64,000 nt of DNA, taken from IMG/VR virus record IMGVR_UViG_3300013102_000002, positions 64,001 through 128,000 of that record. The stretch is one strand, 5' to 3'. The position numbers were made by a program, and so were the translations under genes. Positions 32,578 through 42,076 of the stretch are shown here, in pieces. The first letter of the stretch is position 1; each line of letters opens with the position of its first letter. The notes beneath the pieces were generated by a model. It saw only the letters and a list, made by a program, of their open reading frames with translations. It did no database searches and was not told the DNA's origin. This stretch comes from a virus.

Positions 32578-32716
32578 CTTTACCAAGCAGCAAGTAATTG
32601 TCCCGATACCATTGTTTTTGGATGAGCAAGGTATAAATAAAAACGCCAAATTGGTGAGTGTGGTAATCGAAGGGGATAAGGTCGTCATTACCTACAAAGA
32701 CGGTAATAACCAATGA
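32564..32716 (+). CDS. 50-aa AbrB/MazE-like protein (copy 1)
   Basis: AAGGAGG RBS; MVKFNFTKQQVIVPIPLFLDEQGINKNAKLVSVVIEGDKVVITYKDGNNQ; paralog at 60007. Confidence 0.65.
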   Translation: MVKFNFTKQQVIVPIPLFLDEQGINKNAKLVSVVIEGDKVVITYKDGNNQ

Positions 32717-33030
32717 TATACAACGAAATCGTTAAGCAAAAATATCTTCAAACTATGAAGAATCGGCAAGTATCTGAGATATTTAGTTTATTTCATGAAA
32801 TCGGCTCAGCTGAACAAATGCACAAGAAAGATATTTATGATTTCTCTAAGGATGAACTTAATCAAGTTCTGTTTATATTAAAGCCGTCAACTTTTAAACA
32901 ATCAGTACAAAACAAAAAAATAGTTGAACAATACATTGATTGGGCGATTACACAAGCACATTCTGATATTAATTTTAATCCTCTTTCTTTATGGGGAAAT
33001 GATTGGTGTGAACAGCACATTGTTAAATGA
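32713..33030 (+). CDS. Stand-alone N-terminal domain of a YopR/MrpR-type repressor
   Basis: Aligns to the N-terminal ~110 aa of 38473..39468 (NExxKxxYL, KDxYxF, YIxWAIxQ, NPL). Confidence 0.75.
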   Translation: MIYNEIVKQKYLQTMKNRQVSEIFSLFHEIGSAEQMHKKDIYDFSKDELNQVLFILKPSTFKQSVQNKKIVEQYIDWAITQAHSDINFNPLSLWGNDWCEQHIVK

Positions 33031-33517: not shown

Positions 33518-33821
33518 AATACGAATTTTATCTAAAATTGCGATGAAAAAACCCTTGATTTATAAGGGTTTTTTGTTTTGTCTTTTTATGAAAATTTTGA
33601 ATTTTGGAATTTTTTCTGTTTAAGAGTGAAAATATAAGGTTAATACAAAATAAGAGAGACATTAGTCACGTATATACATATTCCCAGCAGTAATGCAGTA
33701 CTTTTCAATTTTCAGAGAATGTCAACACCAAAACACACTATTATCCTAATTTATGTAAGGAAATTTTGTGCAACAACATTTGTATTGACAAAAACAAAAA
33801 CATTTGAATTTATTGACGTTT

Positions 33822-33835
33822 AGAACAAATGTTCG
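33822..33835. promoter_or_regulatory. LexA/SOS (Cheo) box upstream of mazF
   Basis: AGAAC-AAAT-GTTCG matches the Firmicute consensus CGAAC-N4-GTTCG. Confidence 0.7.
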
Positions 33836-33944: not shown

Positions 33945-34349
33945 GTGGTACATATGAGCATGGTCATGGAACGAGTGGAAATGAATAAAAATACTAAAAT
34001 CGATGTAAGGAAATATGAAGTGTGGATGGCTGATTTAAACTCAGACGGTTCTGTACAAGGAGGAAGAAGACCAGTTGTTATTGTATCCAACAATCTTCAC
34101 AATAAATTTTCTCCGACTGCCATTATTGTACCGACAACAGGAAGCAAAACAAAACGTCCGCTTCCTACTCATGTCGATCTAATTGCTTCTGAGACAGGAT
34201 TTATTAAAAACAGTGTTATGCTGTGTGAGCAAATCACTTCTATTGACAAAGAACGACTGAAGTGGAAAATAACCGACCTCCCTCTAAATTATCATGGGAT
34301 AATTAGTAAAGCCGTAGGAGTAGCGACTTCCGATGTACAAGTTTACTAA
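33945..34349 (+). CDS. mazF: MazF/PemK-family endoribonuclease toxin (start uncertain)
   Basis: EVWMADL..GSVQGGRRPVVIVSNN..NKFSPTAIIVP..LPTHV..SVMLCEQITSIDKERL. Confidence 0.92.
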   Translation: MVHMSMVMERVEMNKNTKIDVRKYEVWMADLNSDGSVQGGRRPVVIVSNNLHNKFSPTAIIVPTTGSKTKRPLPTHVDLIASETGFIKNSVMLCEQITSIDKERLKWKITDLPLNYHGIISKAVGVATSDVQVY

Positions 34350-34372: not shown

Positions 34373-34603
34373 TTATACCTCTTCTTTTTTAGAATCATCT
34401 TTGTGATATTTAAACAAATCAATAATATCAATATCTAACTCATCACATATTGAGACAATATTCTTTAGAGGAATTTGTTTGGCTGTATTATTGCACATTT
34501 CATTGATAGTTGAATGCCTTATGTTGGTACGTCTAGAAAGTTCTCTTTTAGTAATCCCCTTGCTATCTAGTATGTATTGTAATCTTATCTCAACCCATGA
34601 CAT
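34373..34603 (-). CDS. XRE/Cro-C1 HTH regulator (YozG-like)
   Basis: LQYILDSKGITKRELSRRTNIRHSTINEMCNN..ICDELDIDIIDLF; GGGGG RBS. Confidence 0.85.
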   Translation of the reverse strand: MSWVEIRLQYILDSKGITKRELSRRTNIRHSTINEMCNNTAKQIPLKNIVSICDELDIDIIDLFKYHKDDSKKEEV

Positions 34604-37151: not shown

Positions 37152-38483
37152 TTGAAAAAAGACAGAGATCAGCTTGAAACATTAATTGCGGAGACAATTG
37201 CAGAAGTTAAAGTTGATCGGAAAAAAGTGTTGAAAGTTAATAATTTCCTCTCTGAATCAGGAGTATCATTAGGAACATTTGATGAGATATCAAAGGGAGA
37301 TAAGCAATTATCAACATTAGAATCATCAATGTTATGTGTTTTATCCGATGCTCTGTATGAACTAACTGCTAACGGGAATCTCAAACCTGACCAATGGTTT
37401 ACCACTAAAGAAATAAGTTATGCAAAAAAGGAATTAATGAACAATACAGAAACCAATAGAATAATGTTGCCTATAGCTCTTGAAAATGTTGAGATGGTAA
37501 GTATAGACAATTATATCACTAAAATTAAGATGTCCGATTTAGTTCAATGGTTTCACTCGCAGTTAATCATTTATGATTTTGATACTCAAAGAAGTGCAAA
37601 GTTTAAAACTGGTAAGAATGGAGTTGTACCTGTACCAGATATTAATTTAAAAAGCGTTGTAGATATTGCAGATAATATGTTAAATGGTACATACCTAGAG
37701 GATATGATTACTCTAAATATTTACTCAGACGAAACTGAGGCAGTTGATTATAACTCTAAATCTCGGCTGTTGACGGTTAATGAACAAGCGGTAATATCTA
37801 TCCTTGATGGGTTTCATCGTCTACAGGGAGGTGTGAGGGCCTGTGCAACCAACCCCGAGTTAGAGCAGATGATGATTCTTTCAATTAGATCATATGATAC
37901 AGATACGGCCAAGAAGTATTTTGGACAAATCAATACCATAAACGTAGTGAAAAAAGAAAGATTGAAGGAACTGAAGTCTCAAAAATTCTCAGATTTAGTC
38001 GTTAAAGATCTTCAACAAAAAACTGATCTTAAGGGCAAGATTGCATCAGCATCAAGAATAAGCGAATTGGCTGGACAATTGACCACCTTTGACATACTTT
38101 CACATGCTATTGACAATGTTTATAAACCTAAAAGCAGACTTGATGCAATGGAGATATCAGAAAAACTCACGAAATTTTTTAATTGGTTGGCAGGTAGTTT
38201 TGTTGATGAGTTTATAACAAATCCTAACAATTATAGGGATGAGAATATTAATCATTCTCTTATATTTTTAGGATATGTCGTAATTGCTAAATACTTTGAA
38301 GACAACCAAATTCCATACAAGGACATAAAGAGTTTTATCGAAAATAAAATAGATTTTAAAGACAAGAAGTTAATTGAGCTTTTAAATAATAAGCGTGGAA
38401 TCAACAATGCAAAAGTAAGAAATGATGTAATTAAATATTTTGAGCGGCTGATAGGAATAGGAGTGGATCAAGATGTCCAATAA
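37152..38483 (+). CDS. yopQ: SPbeta YopQ-like protein (DndB/ParB-fold)
   Basis: YDFDTQR, PVPDINLKSVVDI, ISILDGFHRL; directly upstream of the yopR-like gene as in SPbeta. Confidence 0.75.
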   Translation: MKKDRDQLETLIAETIAEVKVDRKKVLKVNNFLSESGVSLGTFDEISKGDKQLSTLESSMLCVLSDALYELTANGNLKPDQWFTTKEISYAKKELMNNTETNRIMLPIALENVEMVSIDNYITKIKMSDLVQWFHSQLIIYDFDTQRSAKFKTGKNGVVPVPDINLKSVVDIADNMLNGTYLEDMITLNIYSDETEAVDYNSKSRLLTVNEQAVISILDGFHRLQGGVRACATNPELEQMMILSIRSYDTDTAKKYFGQINTINVVKKERLKELKSQKFSDLVVKDLQQKTDLKGKIASASRISELAGQLTTFDILSHAIDNVYKPKSRLDAMEISEKLTKFFNWLAGSFVDEFITNPNNYRDENINHSLIFLGYVVIAKYFEDNQIPYKDIKSFIENKIDFKDKKLIELLNNKRGINNAKVRNDVIKYFERLIGIGVDQDVQ

Positions 38484-39468
38484 AATATATGAAGATGGAT
38501 TTTTTAATGAATCCCATAAAGAAATGTATCTTAAAGATCTAAGTGAAAAAACTTACGTGTCCTATGCAAGAGTCCTAAAAAGAGCACGATATGTAGAAGA
38601 ACAATTAGGTAAAGACCTATATAACTTTAATGTGTCTGAGATAGAACAACTACTTACATTTATGTCGCCTGGGTCTTATTCAGTAAGCGGTGGAAACATA
38701 AACGTAATTAGAACTTATATAAGATGGGCAATTCAACAAGACTTAAGAGTTGATAACATCAATCCGTTAGACTCCGTTATCAGTGATGAATTTATAAACA
38801 AGTTTATTGACACAACAAACAAGAAACTATTTACCGAAGAAGAAATTAATACAATCGTTGGTGGACTACAAAGCTTCCAGGATGCAGCAATAATACAATG
38901 TCTGTTTGAGGGAATAATGGGACATGAGTACTCTGAGATTTTAAACATACTCAAAGGCGATGTAGATAGGGATAGTACTAAACTAGAGGTAAGAAATTCT
39001 CCAGCATCAGGACCAATGGAAAGAAGAGTAGCCGAAGTGAGTCCTAAATTAATGAACTTACTGTACAGTGCAGCAAACGAGACAGAATACTTAAAGTTTA
39101 ATGGGATGAGTAATTCTAAAGCTCAGAGAATCGAATTAATCGAGAATGAGTATGTATTTAGATCGGTTAAACTCAGAGTGGTTAATTATGAAAGAGCAAG
39201 TAATCATTTAGTGTTAAGAAGAATAAAGAGTATTAGGGAATGGTATGGATATCCTCATCTAACTGCAACAGGAATAAAAAACTCAGGTATGCTTAAGATG
39301 GCTAGAGATCTTTATGTAGTAAATAAGACTTTAACCCGAGAAGATATAAATAAGATTTGTAAACGATTTGGAGCGAACGCAATTGCTACAACAAGGCTCA
39401 CAAAAGACTTTTTAAATGTAGATACAATCAGGTCGCTTTATCCAGAAGTAGATGAAGAACAAGCCTAA
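38473..39468 (+). CDS. yopR: YopR/MrpR-like master repressor (tyrosine-recombinase fold, catalytic residues degenerate)
   Basis: FFNESHKEMYL, KDLYNF, YIRWAI, QDAAIIQCLFEGIMG..SEILNI, LTATGIKNSGM; R, HxxR and catalytic Y not evident. Confidence 0.8.
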   Translation: MSNKIYEDGFFNESHKEMYLKDLSEKTYVSYARVLKRARYVEEQLGKDLYNFNVSEIEQLLTFMSPGSYSVSGGNINVIRTYIRWAIQQDLRVDNINPLDSVISDEFINKFIDTTNKKLFTEEEINTIVGGLQSFQDAAIIQCLFEGIMGHEYSEILNILKGDVDRDSTKLEVRNSPASGPMERRVAEVSPKLMNLLYSAANETEYLKFNGMSNSKAQRIELIENEYVFRSVKLRVVNYERASNHLVLRRIKSIREWYGYPHLTATGIKNSGMLKMARDLYVVNKTLTREDINKICKRFGANAIATTRLTKDFLNVDTIRSLYPEVDEEQA

Positions 39469-39487
39469 AACTTGTTCTTCTTTTTTT
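39453..39487 (+). terminator. Rho-independent terminator after the yopR-like gene
   Basis: GAAGAACAAG-CCTAAAA-CTTGTTCTTC followed by T7. Confidence 0.8.
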
Positions 39488-39498
39488 GTTTAAAAGTG

Positions 39499-39561
39499 TT
39501 GACTTTGGCTTTTACGCATGATATATTGAGTACATAAGAAATACATATATTTATTAATTAA
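39499..39561 (+). promoter_or_regulatory. Promoter of the agr-like operon with an inverted copy of the phage promoter motif
   Basis: TTGACT(39499)-17-TATATT(39522) with TG; ATATATTTATTAATTAA at 39545-39561 is the reverse complement of the motif at 22689. Confidence 0.7.
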
Positions 39562-39591
39562 AACAACATCATAAAAGGAGACAAGAGAAAG

Positions 39592-40248
39592 ATGCTAGAT
39601 GCGATTATTTATGTAGGGTTTGCAGCAATTGAAGTTTACTCAATTATGTTTTTGATAATGTCAATTGCAAGGATGAATATTTTTGAATACATAAAGGAGT
39701 CTACGGTAGGAGTAGTGATTGTTTCGATCTGCACTTACTTATTTAAAGAATCTACGATATTGAGTCAGATATCTCCTATGATATGTCTCCTGCTGTTTTT
39801 ATCAATTTTAATCTTTATCTTTAGGGTTTCAACAATCCACTCAATAATCATTGTGTTGATCGGATACATAACATGCCTTATTATACAGGGAGTATTTATC
39901 TTTATTCCAACAATTTTTTCAAACTTAACCTTTGACGAAATAAAAGCCAACGATACTCTGAGATACTCCTTTCAAACAATTAATGCAATAATCATCTTCT
40001 CCCTGGGGCATTTTCTTAGAAAGAAAAACATTGGATTTTTATTTGTTCCTTATGCACCATCATTTAAGTTTAAAATCACAAAAACAAATTTGAATATCGT
40101 CTATCTATTGATACTTGCAGTACTCGCATTAAGTTCAATTCTAGAGATCGGTAAGATGTACATTGGAATCTTTATGCTAATCATTCTGTTTAATTTCGCG
40201 CTATTTATGGGACTGAGAAGAGAAAGAGGGTCGGTTAAGTTTGATTGA
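39592..40248 (+). CDS. Polytopic membrane protein resembling the AgrC sensor domain, without histidine kinase domain
   Basis: 6-7 TM segments, 218 aa, no H-box or HATPase; translationally coupled to agrB. Confidence 0.7.
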   Translation: MLDAIIYVGFAAIEVYSIMFLIMSIARMNIFEYIKESTVGVVIVSICTYLFKESTILSQISPMICLLLFLSILIFIFRVSTIHSIIIVLIGYITCLIIQGVFIFIPTIFSNLTFDEIKANDTLRYSFQTINAIIIFSLGHFLRKKNIGFLFVPYAPSFKFKITKTNLNIVYLLILAVLALSSILEIGKMYIGIFMLIILFNFALFMGLRRERGSVKFD

Positions 40249-40777
40249 TAAAATATGCGGATTGGCTACAAACTATTTTCATAAATATGATGGAATGCCC
40301 GAAAAAGACGTAATAGAATATTCGCTTAAATTCATCTTAACAAATATAATTACATTTCTATTAATTATAGCATTGGGACTGACAACTGGGAATATCATCA
40401 ATGTTCTTATTGCTGCATTATCTTTTTCTTTACTAAGAGTTTTCTCTGGGGGGATACACATCAAAAACCCCGATTTATGTATATTAACATCTTTGACTGT
40501 GGTTTATGCATTAGCAAATCTACCAAGTTATATTAGTCCTGAATATGTAAAAGTTTTTATGGTCATTACTTTTCTATTAGTAATTATATATGCTCCTTCA
40601 AAAATAGAAGATCACTCTATATTAAGAAAAGAAAAGCACTATATATTTAAAATAATTTCCATAATTATAGTGTTTGCTGGAATCATTGGCAAGAATGAAA
40701 TTATACAGTTTTCTTTTTTTGTGCAAAGTCTAACCCTCATCAATATTCGCATGAAGGGGGGTGAAATTAATGAATAA
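40241..40777 (+). CDS. agrB: AgrB-family peptide maturation protease
   Basis: IEYSL, LLRVFSGGIH..DLC (catalytic His/Cys), IYAPS; membrane protein. Confidence 0.92.
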   Translation: MIDKICGLATNYFHKYDGMPEKDVIEYSLKFILTNIITFLLIIALGLTTGNIINVLIAALSFSLLRVFSGGIHIKNPDLCILTSLTVVYALANLPSYISPEYVKVFMVITFLLVIIYAPSKIEDHSILRKEKHYIFKIISIIIVFAGIIGKNEIIQFSFFVQSLTLINIRMKGGEINE

Positions 40778-40904
40778 ATTCATGAAGAAAATTGCGCCAG
40801 TAATGGGCACACTGTTTTCAGCAGTTGCAGTTCTAAGCACAGCTTCGACCGCATCTGCTTTGTGGCTCGGTAGTAATCCGGCTCCAAAGAGTTTGAGAAA
40901 GTAA
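40770..40904 (+). CDS. agrD: AgrD-like cyclic lactone autoinducer precursor (44 aa)
   Basis: GGGGGTGA RBS; MNKFMKKIAPVMGTLFSAVAVLSTASTA-SALWL-GSNPAPKSLRK: amphipathic leader, TAS core, PxP..L tail; below the ORF-track cutoff. Confidence 0.88.
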   Translation: MNKFMKKIAPVMGTLFSAVAVLSTASTASALWLGSNPAPKSLRK

Positions 40905-40973
40905 AATTTAGGCGAATCGTCTCCTCCCATTTATATAGTGGGAGGATATGCCGCCAAATTGGAGGCTATTATT

Positions 40974-41363
40974 TTGGGCGATAGAATAATGGTTATCAAA
41001 GTTGAAATAGATCTGAAAAAAAAGGAATACATAACCGGGGAAGCCCAATGGCTAGAAGTAGAAAAAATATTGAATACAAGAGTTGAAAGAATAAAAGGAC
41101 GAGACAAAATCATAATCAATACTACAGAAGGGTTGTTTTTTTATAATGTACTAGCAGACAACTTCACATCTTTAATGTCGGAATTAAATGGATTTGAAAT
41201 AGCTGATAGAGGTGTAATCGTTAATCTTGAGAATGAGGTTGCTCTTGACCTAGATAAAAGAGTTATTGTATTTGAAGACTATCCTAGTATCATAGCTCCA
41301 GTGGGAGGATCACGACTTCCTGATATTAAGAAGTTAATAAAAAAATGGGTACTAAAAAAGTAG
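40974..41363 (+). CDS. Stand-alone LytTR DNA-binding domain protein (no receiver domain)
   Basis: GFEIADRGVIVNL..LDLDKRVIVF..VGGSRLPDIKK; GGAGG 8 nt before in-frame TTG 40974. Confidence 0.75.
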   Translation: MGDRIMVIKVEIDLKKKEYITGEAQWLEVEKILNTRVERIKGRDKIIINTTEGLFFYNVLADNFTSLMSELNGFEIADRGVIVNLENEVALDLDKRVIVFEDYPSIIAPVGGSRLPDIKKLIKKWVLKK

Positions 41364-41410: not shown

Positions 41411-41462
41411 TTGCAATAAAGAAATATTAAATGTATAATTAATAAATAAGAACATTTGTTCC
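41411..41462 (+). promoter_or_regulatory. sigmaA promoter with LexA box near +1
   Basis: TTGCAA(41411)-17-TATAAT(41434); AGAAC-ATTT-GTTCC at 41449-41462. Confidence 0.75.
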
Positions 41463-41683
41463 TGTTTTCATCATCCGACACGAACCGACAAATTATAACC
41501 TCCGAAGAAAAATATGGCAATTGTCAACACTAAAGTTGTTGCACAATTATCGTATTGAAATAGTATCACATTAGATATATGATATATTTACCACTTATGA
41601 GTGAGGGAGCCGATGTCTATTTTTCAACTCAGATATGATAGTAGTAACAACGGGGAGCATTTCAAAAAAGAGGGGATACGCAC

Positions 41684-42076
41684 ATGCACTTATCAATGAT
41701 CAGAGAACTCTCGATGGCACTAAACGTTGATTCTAATGCTGCTGGTTTCTGGAATAACGTACGTTATCTATTTAAAACAGATGATGAGGTCAGGTCATTA
41801 CTGCATGAGTGTGCTGGGAAATCGAGAAGAGAAATAGATAAGTATATTTCAAAAGTAAGGAATGAAAAAATAAAAAAGTATCGTTTTCTGTCTTTAAATG
41901 ATTTTGTAAGTAGCTTCAATGTCGATAAGATTACTGCTCTCGAAAGGATGTTCCAAGAGCCAATTGATATTTCGAAACTATCCAAATTGACTACCAATGA
42001 CCCAACCCGCATATTCACTATACATAGCAACCTACCACTTGCGGTGTGGTTCATGAGTTTTGTAATCTATTTGTAG
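41684..42076 (+). CDS. Hypothetical protein (possibly SOS-regulated)
   Basis: GAGGGG RBS; first sizeable ORF after the LexA-box promoter. Confidence 0.65.
   Translation: MHLSMIRELSMALNVDSNAAGFWNNVRYLFKTDDEVRSLLHECAGKSRREIDKYISKVRNEKIKKYRFLSLNDFVSSFNVDKITALERMFQEPIDISKLSKLTTNDPTRIFTIHSNLPLAVWFMSFVIYL

Follow-up and report, generated by a model that had tools for sequence, protein, structure and literature searches.

Can an agr-type cyclic peptide be read without a histidine kinase, and could such a signal inform the lysogeny switch of a phage that lacks arbitrium? The question is raised by a cassette of four small genes that stands directly after a MrpR/YopR-type repressor gene in a 64,000-nt stretch of viral DNA (hereafter the window), which corresponds to bases 64001-128000 of the virus record IMGVR_UViG_3300013102_000002, a complete genome of 174,510 bp with direct terminal repeats. 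All coordinates are window positions, and the cassette region (37152-41363, plus strand) holds six genes, the repressor gene and its upstream neighbour included. We propose that the cassette is a self-contained agr-type peptide signalling unit that operates without phosphotransfer, through a circuit of five steps, in an SPbeta-like Paenibacillus phage. The probability of this reading is in our estimate about 0.45. The four genes of the cassette are as follows.

39592..40248, plus strand: TM218, a seven-helix membrane protein and putative peptide sensor, 218 aa (seven helices in the AlphaFold2 (AF2) model)
40241..40777, plus strand: AgrB peptidase, 178 aa (PF04647, E 1.2e-24)
40770..40904, plus strand: AgrD precursor, 44 aa, without Cys, core STAS-ALWL then tail GSNPAPKSLRK (overlaps agrB by 8 nt; kept in all relatives)
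40974..41363, plus strand: stand-alone LytTR DNA-binding protein, about 129 aa, without receiver (AF2 and Foldseek)

The first-pass annotation had described a complete, kinase-less unit composed of a 218-aa protein with several transmembrane (TM) helices and no kinase domain, an AgrB with its catalytic His and Cys, a Cys-free 44-aa AgrD with Ser in the place of the ring nucleophile, and a LytTR domain without receiver, and every one of these parts was found where it had been placed. In AgrB, residues R66, S69, G70, G71, H73 and C80 are invariant, and H73 and C80 lie seven residues apart, which is also the spacing of the catalytic pair of the Staphylococcus aureus enzyme. Both TM218/agrB and agrB/agrD overlap by 8 nt. 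The Ser of AgrD stands 5 residues before the tail and is followed by a Pro at +6, as in S. aureus AgrD. The AgrDs of related cassettes in bacterial chromosomes follow the pattern (S/T)(T/A)A-[S/C]-xxxx and then a Pro-rich tail ending in EL; across them Ser and Cys interchange at one position, five residues before the tail, and some have Cys where the window's AgrD has Ser. Since Ser and Cys share this position, Ser would be the ring nucleophile and cyclo-SALWL the likely ring, judging from the alignment; the ring size is uncertain, as the nucleophile is placed differently in a subgroup to which the AgrDs of Davies and Emery, two cultured temperate phages of Brevibacillus, belong. A Ser-for-Cys ring also occurs in the autoinducing peptide of Staphylococcus intermedius and in the enterococcal gelatinase biosynthesis-activating pheromone.

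TM218 has no Pfam or NCBIfam match, and none of 42 sampled members of its family is covered by a model of either database. A TM218 profile run against 1.84 billion proteins returned 349 representative clusters, and the best 150 of these measure 73-293 aa, mostly about 205-235, with none long enough to hold a kinase domain. A 426-aa open frame that resembled a kinase fusion was rejected as a stop-to-stop artefact over a normal gene of ~215 codons. TM218 belongs to a family without a name, whose members stand alone and have about 215 aa; Q99 and Q128 are the only nearly invariant residues in it. The nearest predicted folds beyond the family itself are the membrane parts of HATPase_c_5/SPOB_a (AgrC-type) kinases, with a TM-score by query of 0.70-0.74 over about 200 residues for an Atlas model and of 0.50 over residues 1-155 for our own AF2 model of TM218. 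The membrane protein had been suggested as the sensor, and this candidacy is strengthened by a predicted fold that most resembles the sensor part of an AgrC-type kinase as well as by co-variation with the peptide (below). No match to TM218 was obtained by tblastn, and none to the region by blastn against GenBank phages; PADLOC reported no defence family.

The last gene of the cassette gave no Pfam match itself. Its longest open reading frame (ORF) runs from 40938 to 41363, and the product has 124-141 aa according to the start codon, the likely one being the TTG at 40974, 8 nt after GGAGG, where relatives have GTG or TTG. The AF2 model (predicted local distance difference test, pLDDT, 81) retrieved LytTR domains as all of the top ten Foldseek matches in the PDB (AgrA, ComE, 3d6w; probability 1.0), followed by a sharp drop. 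The family profile run against PDB sequences found AgrA first (E 0.14), and a distant ortholog matches Pfam LytTR at 7e-6. Because fold match, family profile and ortholog agree, the modelled protein is taken to be a bare LytTR domain.

The absence checks covered the entire genome of 174,510 bp, not only the window, and control genomes match the models used. No HATPase_c, HATPase_c_5, Response_reg or second LytTR was found in the 174.5-kb genome, and no AimR with PF22871 and phi3T AimR as queries, both of which detect the control in Bacillus subtilis. The claim that the window holds no kinase, response regulator or AimR thus holds for the complete genome. With neither an AgrC kinase core nor a receiver on the LytTR protein, no phosphotransfer is possible within the cassette.

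The host and lifestyle of the phage follow from its genome and from an integrated relative. The sample of origin is a rhizosphere metagenome, and the sequencing runs that contain the phage DNA are rhizosphere and soil metagenomes; no RNA run was listed as containing it. Among the phage genes are one for a large serine recombinase and one for a DNA polymerase III alpha subunit. The chromosome of Paenibacillus tianjinensis (CP070969) contains an island of ~175 kb at 4.143-4.318 Mb, with 33-36% GC against a background of 51%, which is collinear with the phage genome and permuted at the recombinase gene. The recombinase and this integrated relative indicate a temperate phage, as had been proposed; together with MrpR/YopR, YopQ and a LexA-gated early promoter they lead us to regard it, on gene content, as an SPbeta-like temperate phage of Paenibacillus. 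The GC content of the cassette (32.6%) is phage-like (phage 34.4%, host ~51%). Separately, the same P. tianjinensis chromosome has a second MrpR homologue at 4,073,450-4,074,073 and, at 4.08-4.09 Mb to the immediate left of the 175-kb prophage, a block of low GC (37%); the stretch at 4.073-4.090 Mb may be a second SPbeta-like element in tandem.

The cassette is preceded by two genes of the SPbeta-type repressor locus, whose proposed identities are borne out by profile matches.

37152..38483, plus strand: yopQ (sroE)-like gene with a DndB/DGQHR fold, 443 aa (Pfam DndB 7.9e-6, TIGR03187 1.1e-8, phrog_5732 4e-111)
38473..39468, plus strand: MrpR/YopR (SroF)-type master repressor with an integrase-like fold, 331 aa (MrpR_N_CB 5.5e-24, MrpR_C_cat 2.4e-14)

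The phage MrpR is 31% identical to phi3T_97/YopR and to SPbeta YopR, and the yopQ-like gene stands before MrpR in all relatives. A further ORF of 105 aa at 32713-33030, ~5.5 kb upstream of the full repressor, consists of the MrpR N-terminal core-binding domain only (PF22822, 3.3e-18), a truncated second MrpR-like protein.

It had been put forward that the link between cassette and repressor would fail if the cassette were not next to yopR in relatives. We found it after yopR in six further phage or prophage lineages, among them the following.

L002: P. tianjinensis prophage
L003/L047 and L048: two IMG/VR phages, 164 and 167 kb
L005: 137-kb contig
L064 and L065: two ENA contigs
L006: distant prophage of Paenibacillus sp. 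JSM ZJ436

L002, L003/L048, L005, L064/L065 and L006 all have the order yopQ-yopR-TM-agrB-agrD-lytTR-LexA promoter, and the order from mazF to the early genes is common to these relatives. Among 401 Paenibacillaceae species genomes, 38 have MrpR, and 29 MrpR loci from other genomes were compared. A TM218-family gene stands directly after yopR in 9 of the 29, all in different species, and is accompanied by AgrB in 8 of these 9, against a rough chance expectation of about 0.006 loci (the family has fewer than one member per 6-Mb genome). At least three gene orders were seen among the cassettes beside yopR. In two of the loci (L074 and L087, genomes G111 and G052) AgrB comes first and the TM protein second, the reverse of the window, so the set has come to lie next to yopR in more ways than one. 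AimR scored above the cut-off in none of the 38 MrpR-bearing genomes. Scans of IMG/VR with a broad TM alignment and with AgrB gave nothing, and scans with TM218 and YopR gave only two near relatives.

A second line of evidence is the way in which the proteins of the cassette vary among close relatives. Identities to the window's proteins are given below.

L003 and L048: YopQ 94%, YopR 95%; TM218 59-60%; AgrB 51%; ring SILWL; LytTR 81%
L002: YopQ 83%, YopR 84%; TM218 88%; AgrB 66%; ring SALWL; LytTR 71%
L064: YopQ 76%, YopR 83%; TM218 77%; AgrB 63%; ring SALWL; LytTR 42%

From the contrast of these identities with those of the flanking genes (L003 vs L002 and L064), TM218 and, less strictly, AgrB go with the peptide ring rather than with the rest of the phage, in the manner of agr specificity groups. 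The proposed co-variation of peptide and receptor is thereby seen for TM218, whose identity tracks the SALWL or SILWL ring. Residues that differ between the two pherotypes map to helices 1-6 of TM218; 67-83% of positions are invariant in the cytoplasmic loop (145-163), in helix 7 and in the C-terminal tail (74-83% in loop and tail).

The signals around the cassette are as follows.

about 39454..39490, plus strand: intrinsic terminator of the yopQR transcript, a 10-bp stem then a T-run (kept in 5 loci)
39499..39527, plus strand: cassette promoter, near-consensus, TTGACT, 17 nt, TGnTATATT with extended -10 (consensus scan)
40911..40955, plus strand: RNA stem-loop between agrD and lytTR without U-tract (RNAalifold: 18 pairs, 6 with compensatory changes, 5 loci)
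41411..41461, plus strand: rightward early promoter (TTGCAA, 17 nt, TATAAT) with LexA box GAACATTTGTTC at 41450-41461 (kept in 6 loci)
41521..41546, no strand: right arm of a 26-nt inverted repeat, a candidate repressor operator (left arm at 33766-33791; the arms bracket the regulatory region)
41684..42076, plus strand: first gene after the SOS promoter, 130 aa, in the position of phi3T Sar

Relatives keep the -35, the extended -10 and the leader of the cassette promoter. Since a terminator and this promoter intervene, both kept in relatives, the cassette is by its signals not part of the yopQR transcript: the first-pass annotation was right in placing it immediately after yopQ-yopR and wrong where it implied a joint transcript. 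The stem-loop ahead of lytTR may serve RNA processing, stability or attenuation and thereby set how much regulator is produced relative to the signal genes. In phi3T, the gene after yopR and yopS encodes the LexA-controlled antirepressor Sar (bioRxiv 10.1101/2025.11.27.690993); in the phage studied here, it is the agr-like cassette that separates the repressor gene from the SOS promoter. BLASTP of the 130-aa protein against phi3T_99 (Sar) gave E 2.1, which is no similarity, so the two genes are analogous only by position. The genome has only two such LexA boxes (41450-41461 and 33823-33834), and the core of the 26-nt inverted repeat is present only at its two arms.

Other observations concern the same switch region. 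After the LexA box, the 41462-41546 stretch holds a conserved tandem CGACAC-N4-CGACAA that is unique in the genome; it was considered as a LytTR or MrpR site and could not be assigned to either, being partly kept in L064, where LytTR is only 42% identical. A promoter-like site on the minus strand at 41520-41492 (TTGCCA, 17 nt, TATAAT, 11/12 matches) is directed back into lytTR, and antisense transcription from it is possible on this pattern. At the other end, a MazF/PemK toxin gene (33945-34349, PF02452 7e-22) stands behind a promoter with the second LexA box, GAACAAATGTTC at 33823-33834. It adjoins the left arm of the inverted repeat, is present in all relatives and is followed by a convergent HTH_26 gene (34373-34603, minus strand); no evident antitoxin ORF was found upstream of the toxin gene. 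Arbitrium of phi3T acts via the host MazEF system (PMC10769878), and given this route an SOS-boxed phage MazF at the switch is notable.

The cassette is not confined to phages. Of 301 Paenibacillaceae genomes, 160 have members of the TM218 family, and multiple copies are frequent. AgrB directly follows the TM218-family gene in 27 of 29 sampled loci, and a LytTR-only protein follows in 27 of 30 (the same 29 and locus L013). P. tianjinensis itself has a chromosomal copy of the cassette near spo0A/spoIVB, together with two canonical agrBDCA loci (L014 and L015) whose AgrD ring, CMTFF, is unlike SALWL. The view of the cassette as an invention of phages has therefore to be given up, the same four-gene unit being common in Paenibacillaceae chromosomes. 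It is also found in unrelated phages: Davies and Emery carry AgrB, an AgrD of 38-39 aa, a LytTR-only gene and two TM218 paralogues between the integrase and cI/cro-type genes, that is, in the lysogeny module. The two paralogues are in tandem ahead of AgrB (gp44 and gp45 in Davies, L066 2604-4008; gp53 and gp54 in Emery, L067) and match the family hidden Markov model (HMM) at E 1e-40 and 2.5e-44. Paired sensors for one peptide gene might allow sensing of self and non-self peptides.

How does the cassette compare with known systems? As in canonical agr (S. aureus agrBDCA), AgrB has the His/Cys pair, and AgrD comes in hypervariable alleles and is built of a leader, a ring nucleophile and, five residues on, a tail with Pro; a multi-helix membrane partner and a LytTR output are shared as well. 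However, the AgrC core (DHp, HATPase_c_5) and the receiver are missing, the order is sensor-B-D-regulator, and Ser replaces Cys. In the LytTR regulatory systems (LRS) of streptococci, such as HdrRM and BrsRM of Streptococcus mutans, a LytTR protein is paired with a membrane protein and the signal is unknown (Zou et al. 2018, PMC6193735). A bare LytTR next to a membrane protein, without kinase, is common to these systems and the cassette, and control by membrane sequestration has been proposed for both. In contrast to LRS, the cassette encodes an AgrBD peptide, TM218 has seven helices and no Pfam match, hence none to the DUF2154 of HdrM, and the gene order is reversed; the likeness drawn earlier does not extend to the direct repeats that define LRS, which were not found. 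The third comparison is arbitrium (aimR-aimP-aimX of SPbeta and phi3T), likewise a phage peptide system with pherotypes, located beside the yopM-R (sro) operon in phages with LexA-gated induction. Its parts are unrelated to those of the cassette: the arbitrium signal is a linear hexapeptide that enters through Opp and binds a tetratricopeptide-repeat (TPR) receptor in the cytoplasm, whereas here a cyclic peptide made by AgrB is predicted and sensing at the membrane proposed, and the genes lie downstream of yopR and not upstream of yopM.

The first-pass annotation cited agr genes from a C. difficile phage, with a kinase; a kinase-less set had also been noted in phages, in 2014. Phage phiCDHM1 carries a true AgrC kinase (PMC3901668), and the paper in question, Hargreaves et al. 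2014, also lists agrB, agrD and membrane proteins that 'lack a HTPase_C domain' in phages Davies, Emery and Abouo (PMC3901668). It reported neither the LytTR gene nor the bacterial spread, pherotypes or SPbeta-repressor link (PMC3901668). Davies and Emery carry the same TM218-AgrB-AgrD-LytTR family beside the integrase, from which the window phage differs in being a 174-kb SPbeta-like phage. A 2025 review states only that phages carry agrB, agrC and agrD homologues. Our literature search, which was incomplete, found no description of a unit of AgrBD and LytTR alone, of its spread in bacteria or of its link to an SPbeta-type repressor. New here are the yopR linkage, the TM218/AgrB/AgrD pherotypes, the chromosomal spread and the Ser/Cys interchange.

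The five-step circuit that we propose starts with AgrB, which very probably cuts off the AgrD tail and closes a ring from Ser; the exported product would probably be a lactone of five residues, cyclo-SALWL, that bears a short exocyclic tail, the exact ring being less sure. We infer the steps that follow ring closure, namely sensing, control of LytTR, promoter binding and an effect on the phage decision. TM218, shaped like the sensor half of an AgrC-type kinase, may well bind its cognate peptide in the variable transmembrane core. Its conserved loop 145-163 and C-terminal tail might then hold or release LytTR in the manner of the streptococcal LRS inhibitors, a step for which the odds seem a little short of even. 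Once free, LytTR would probably bind phage and/or host promoters. More tentatively still, the cassette could serve to gauge how dense lysogens or infections of its own pherotype are and, like arbitrium, tilt lysogenisation or induction, which is conceivable given its own strong promoter and its place between the repressor gene and the LexA-gated early promoter.

A number of results weigh against this circuit. LytTR does not co-vary with the membrane protein: it follows neither the pherotype nor TM218, as in L064, where TM218 is 77% and LytTR 42% identical. TM218 lacks sequence or profile similarity to the AgrC sensors of the same host (no match of the family HMM to the host AgrCs; hhalign probability 0.1 against an AgrC sensor alignment), although this dissimilarity does not exclude common descent, AgrC sensors being highly divergent. 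No solved structure like TM218 was found, the profile retrieving nothing among PDB sequences and Foldseek only non-significant G-protein-coupled receptor (GPCR) rows in the PDB. Direct repeats of the LRS or AgrA type (~9-bp repeats 11-13 bp apart upstream of the -35, at most 1 mismatch) were found neither near the phage cassettes nor, beyond the background rate, upstream of the bacterial ones (4 of 30 loci against 13% of shuffled sequences, no enrichment), and the terminator leaves no space for them upstream of the cassette -35. Complex prediction of TM218 with LytTR gave an ipSAE of 0.37 against 0.01 for the best control, with runs agreeing in at least 97% of contacts and a partner pLDDT of at least 74, and it lends the modelled binding weak support: in calibration, 58 of the 80 solved complexes passed, and so did 2 among 110 mismatched pairs, but passing scores of up to 0.60 came from only 7 of the 80 and from both of these mismatches, and at 0.37 a pass will mislead more often than not, save where the pairing had good prior odds. 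Bacterial chromosomes commonly carry the four-gene unit at sites outside prophages, so a phage decision need not be what it serves, and regions between integrase or repressor genes often hold morons. Finally, the tight translational coupling of TM218 and AgrB fits a biosynthetic role as well.

The chief competitor, to which we give appreciable though clearly less credit, is that the cassette is a real kinase-less quorum-sensing circuit that hitch-hikes on the phage or brings about lysogenic conversion, acting on host traits or on its own expression. The site would then be explained as a region that is expressed in lysogens and tolerates cargo. This would account for the spread of the family through chromosomes, where nearly all loci show the full layout and one lies beside spo0A/spoIVB, for a cassette promoter that follows a terminator, and for the fact that no LytTR site was found at phage promoters; PHROGs, moreover, files the family of TM218 among morons, and the place between integrase and cI-like genes in Davies and Emery is a usual cargo site. 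It sits less easily with the recurrence beside MrpR in nine further loci and in at least three gene orders, with the presence of the unit in unrelated phages beside a different type of switch, or with its phage-like GC. Pherotypes among near-identical phages, expected if phages need private channels, and the lack of arbitrium in these phages also speak for a role in the phage itself.

It is unlikely, in our judgement, that TM218 instead works with AgrB to make or export the peptide or to resist it, perhaps as a leader protease, with a host AgrC reading the signal or being jammed by it and LytTR unrelated. MroQ acts as a leader protease in S. aureus, TM218 and agrB overlap and are always together, both co-vary with the peptide as a processing enzyme would, the host has two canonical agrBDCA loci, and LytTR does not track TM218. 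However, TM218 has no match to any Pfam model, CPBP/Abi, the family of MroQ, included, and no motif of this family was seen in the TM218 sequence. Two nearly invariant glutamines are unlike a catalytic set, the nearest predicted folds are kinase sensor domains, the host ring CMTFF differs from SALWL, and the complex score, weak as it is, exceeds that of the controls. With the LytTR-only gene following in 27 of 30 loci, the signal is accompanied by both sensor and output. The cassette lacks two phosphorelay domains that canonical agr has, as would a decaying, functionless remnant of a captured agr locus that had lost kinase and receiver, but this origin is highly improbable: no lineage has a broken frame, relatives keep the promoter, the hairpin and the overlaps between genes, and the TM218 family is one of stand-alone proteins, with none of kinase length in the best 150 of the 349 clusters.

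The distribution is best read as repeated recruitment of the cassette by temperate Paenibacillaceae phages into the regions of their lysogeny switches, where the pherotypes diversified. It is plausible that TM218 senses the peptide and controls LytTR by binding it, and that the cassette has an arbitrium-like role. The fuller proposal, that SPbeta-like and other temperate Paenibacillaceae phages use a phosphorylation-free circuit with private pherotypes instead of arbitrium to weigh lysogeny or SOS induction against the density of their kin, is doubtful at present.

If the proposed circuit is true, its peptide would be the first known ligand for a system of LytTR plus membrane protein, a class whose signals are unknown (PMC6193735), and agr-type peptides would be readable without a histidine kinase. 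The TM218 family itself is large, being found in about half of the sampled Paenibacillaceae genomes and covered by no Pfam or NCBIfam model. Pherotypes among nearly identical phages make kin-specific signalling directly testable, and P. tianjinensis lysogens, Davies and Emery exist for such work. For the phages that combine an SPbeta-type repressor with SOS control and lack arbitrium, the cassette would be a second, unrelated peptide language in the control of lysis and lysogeny.

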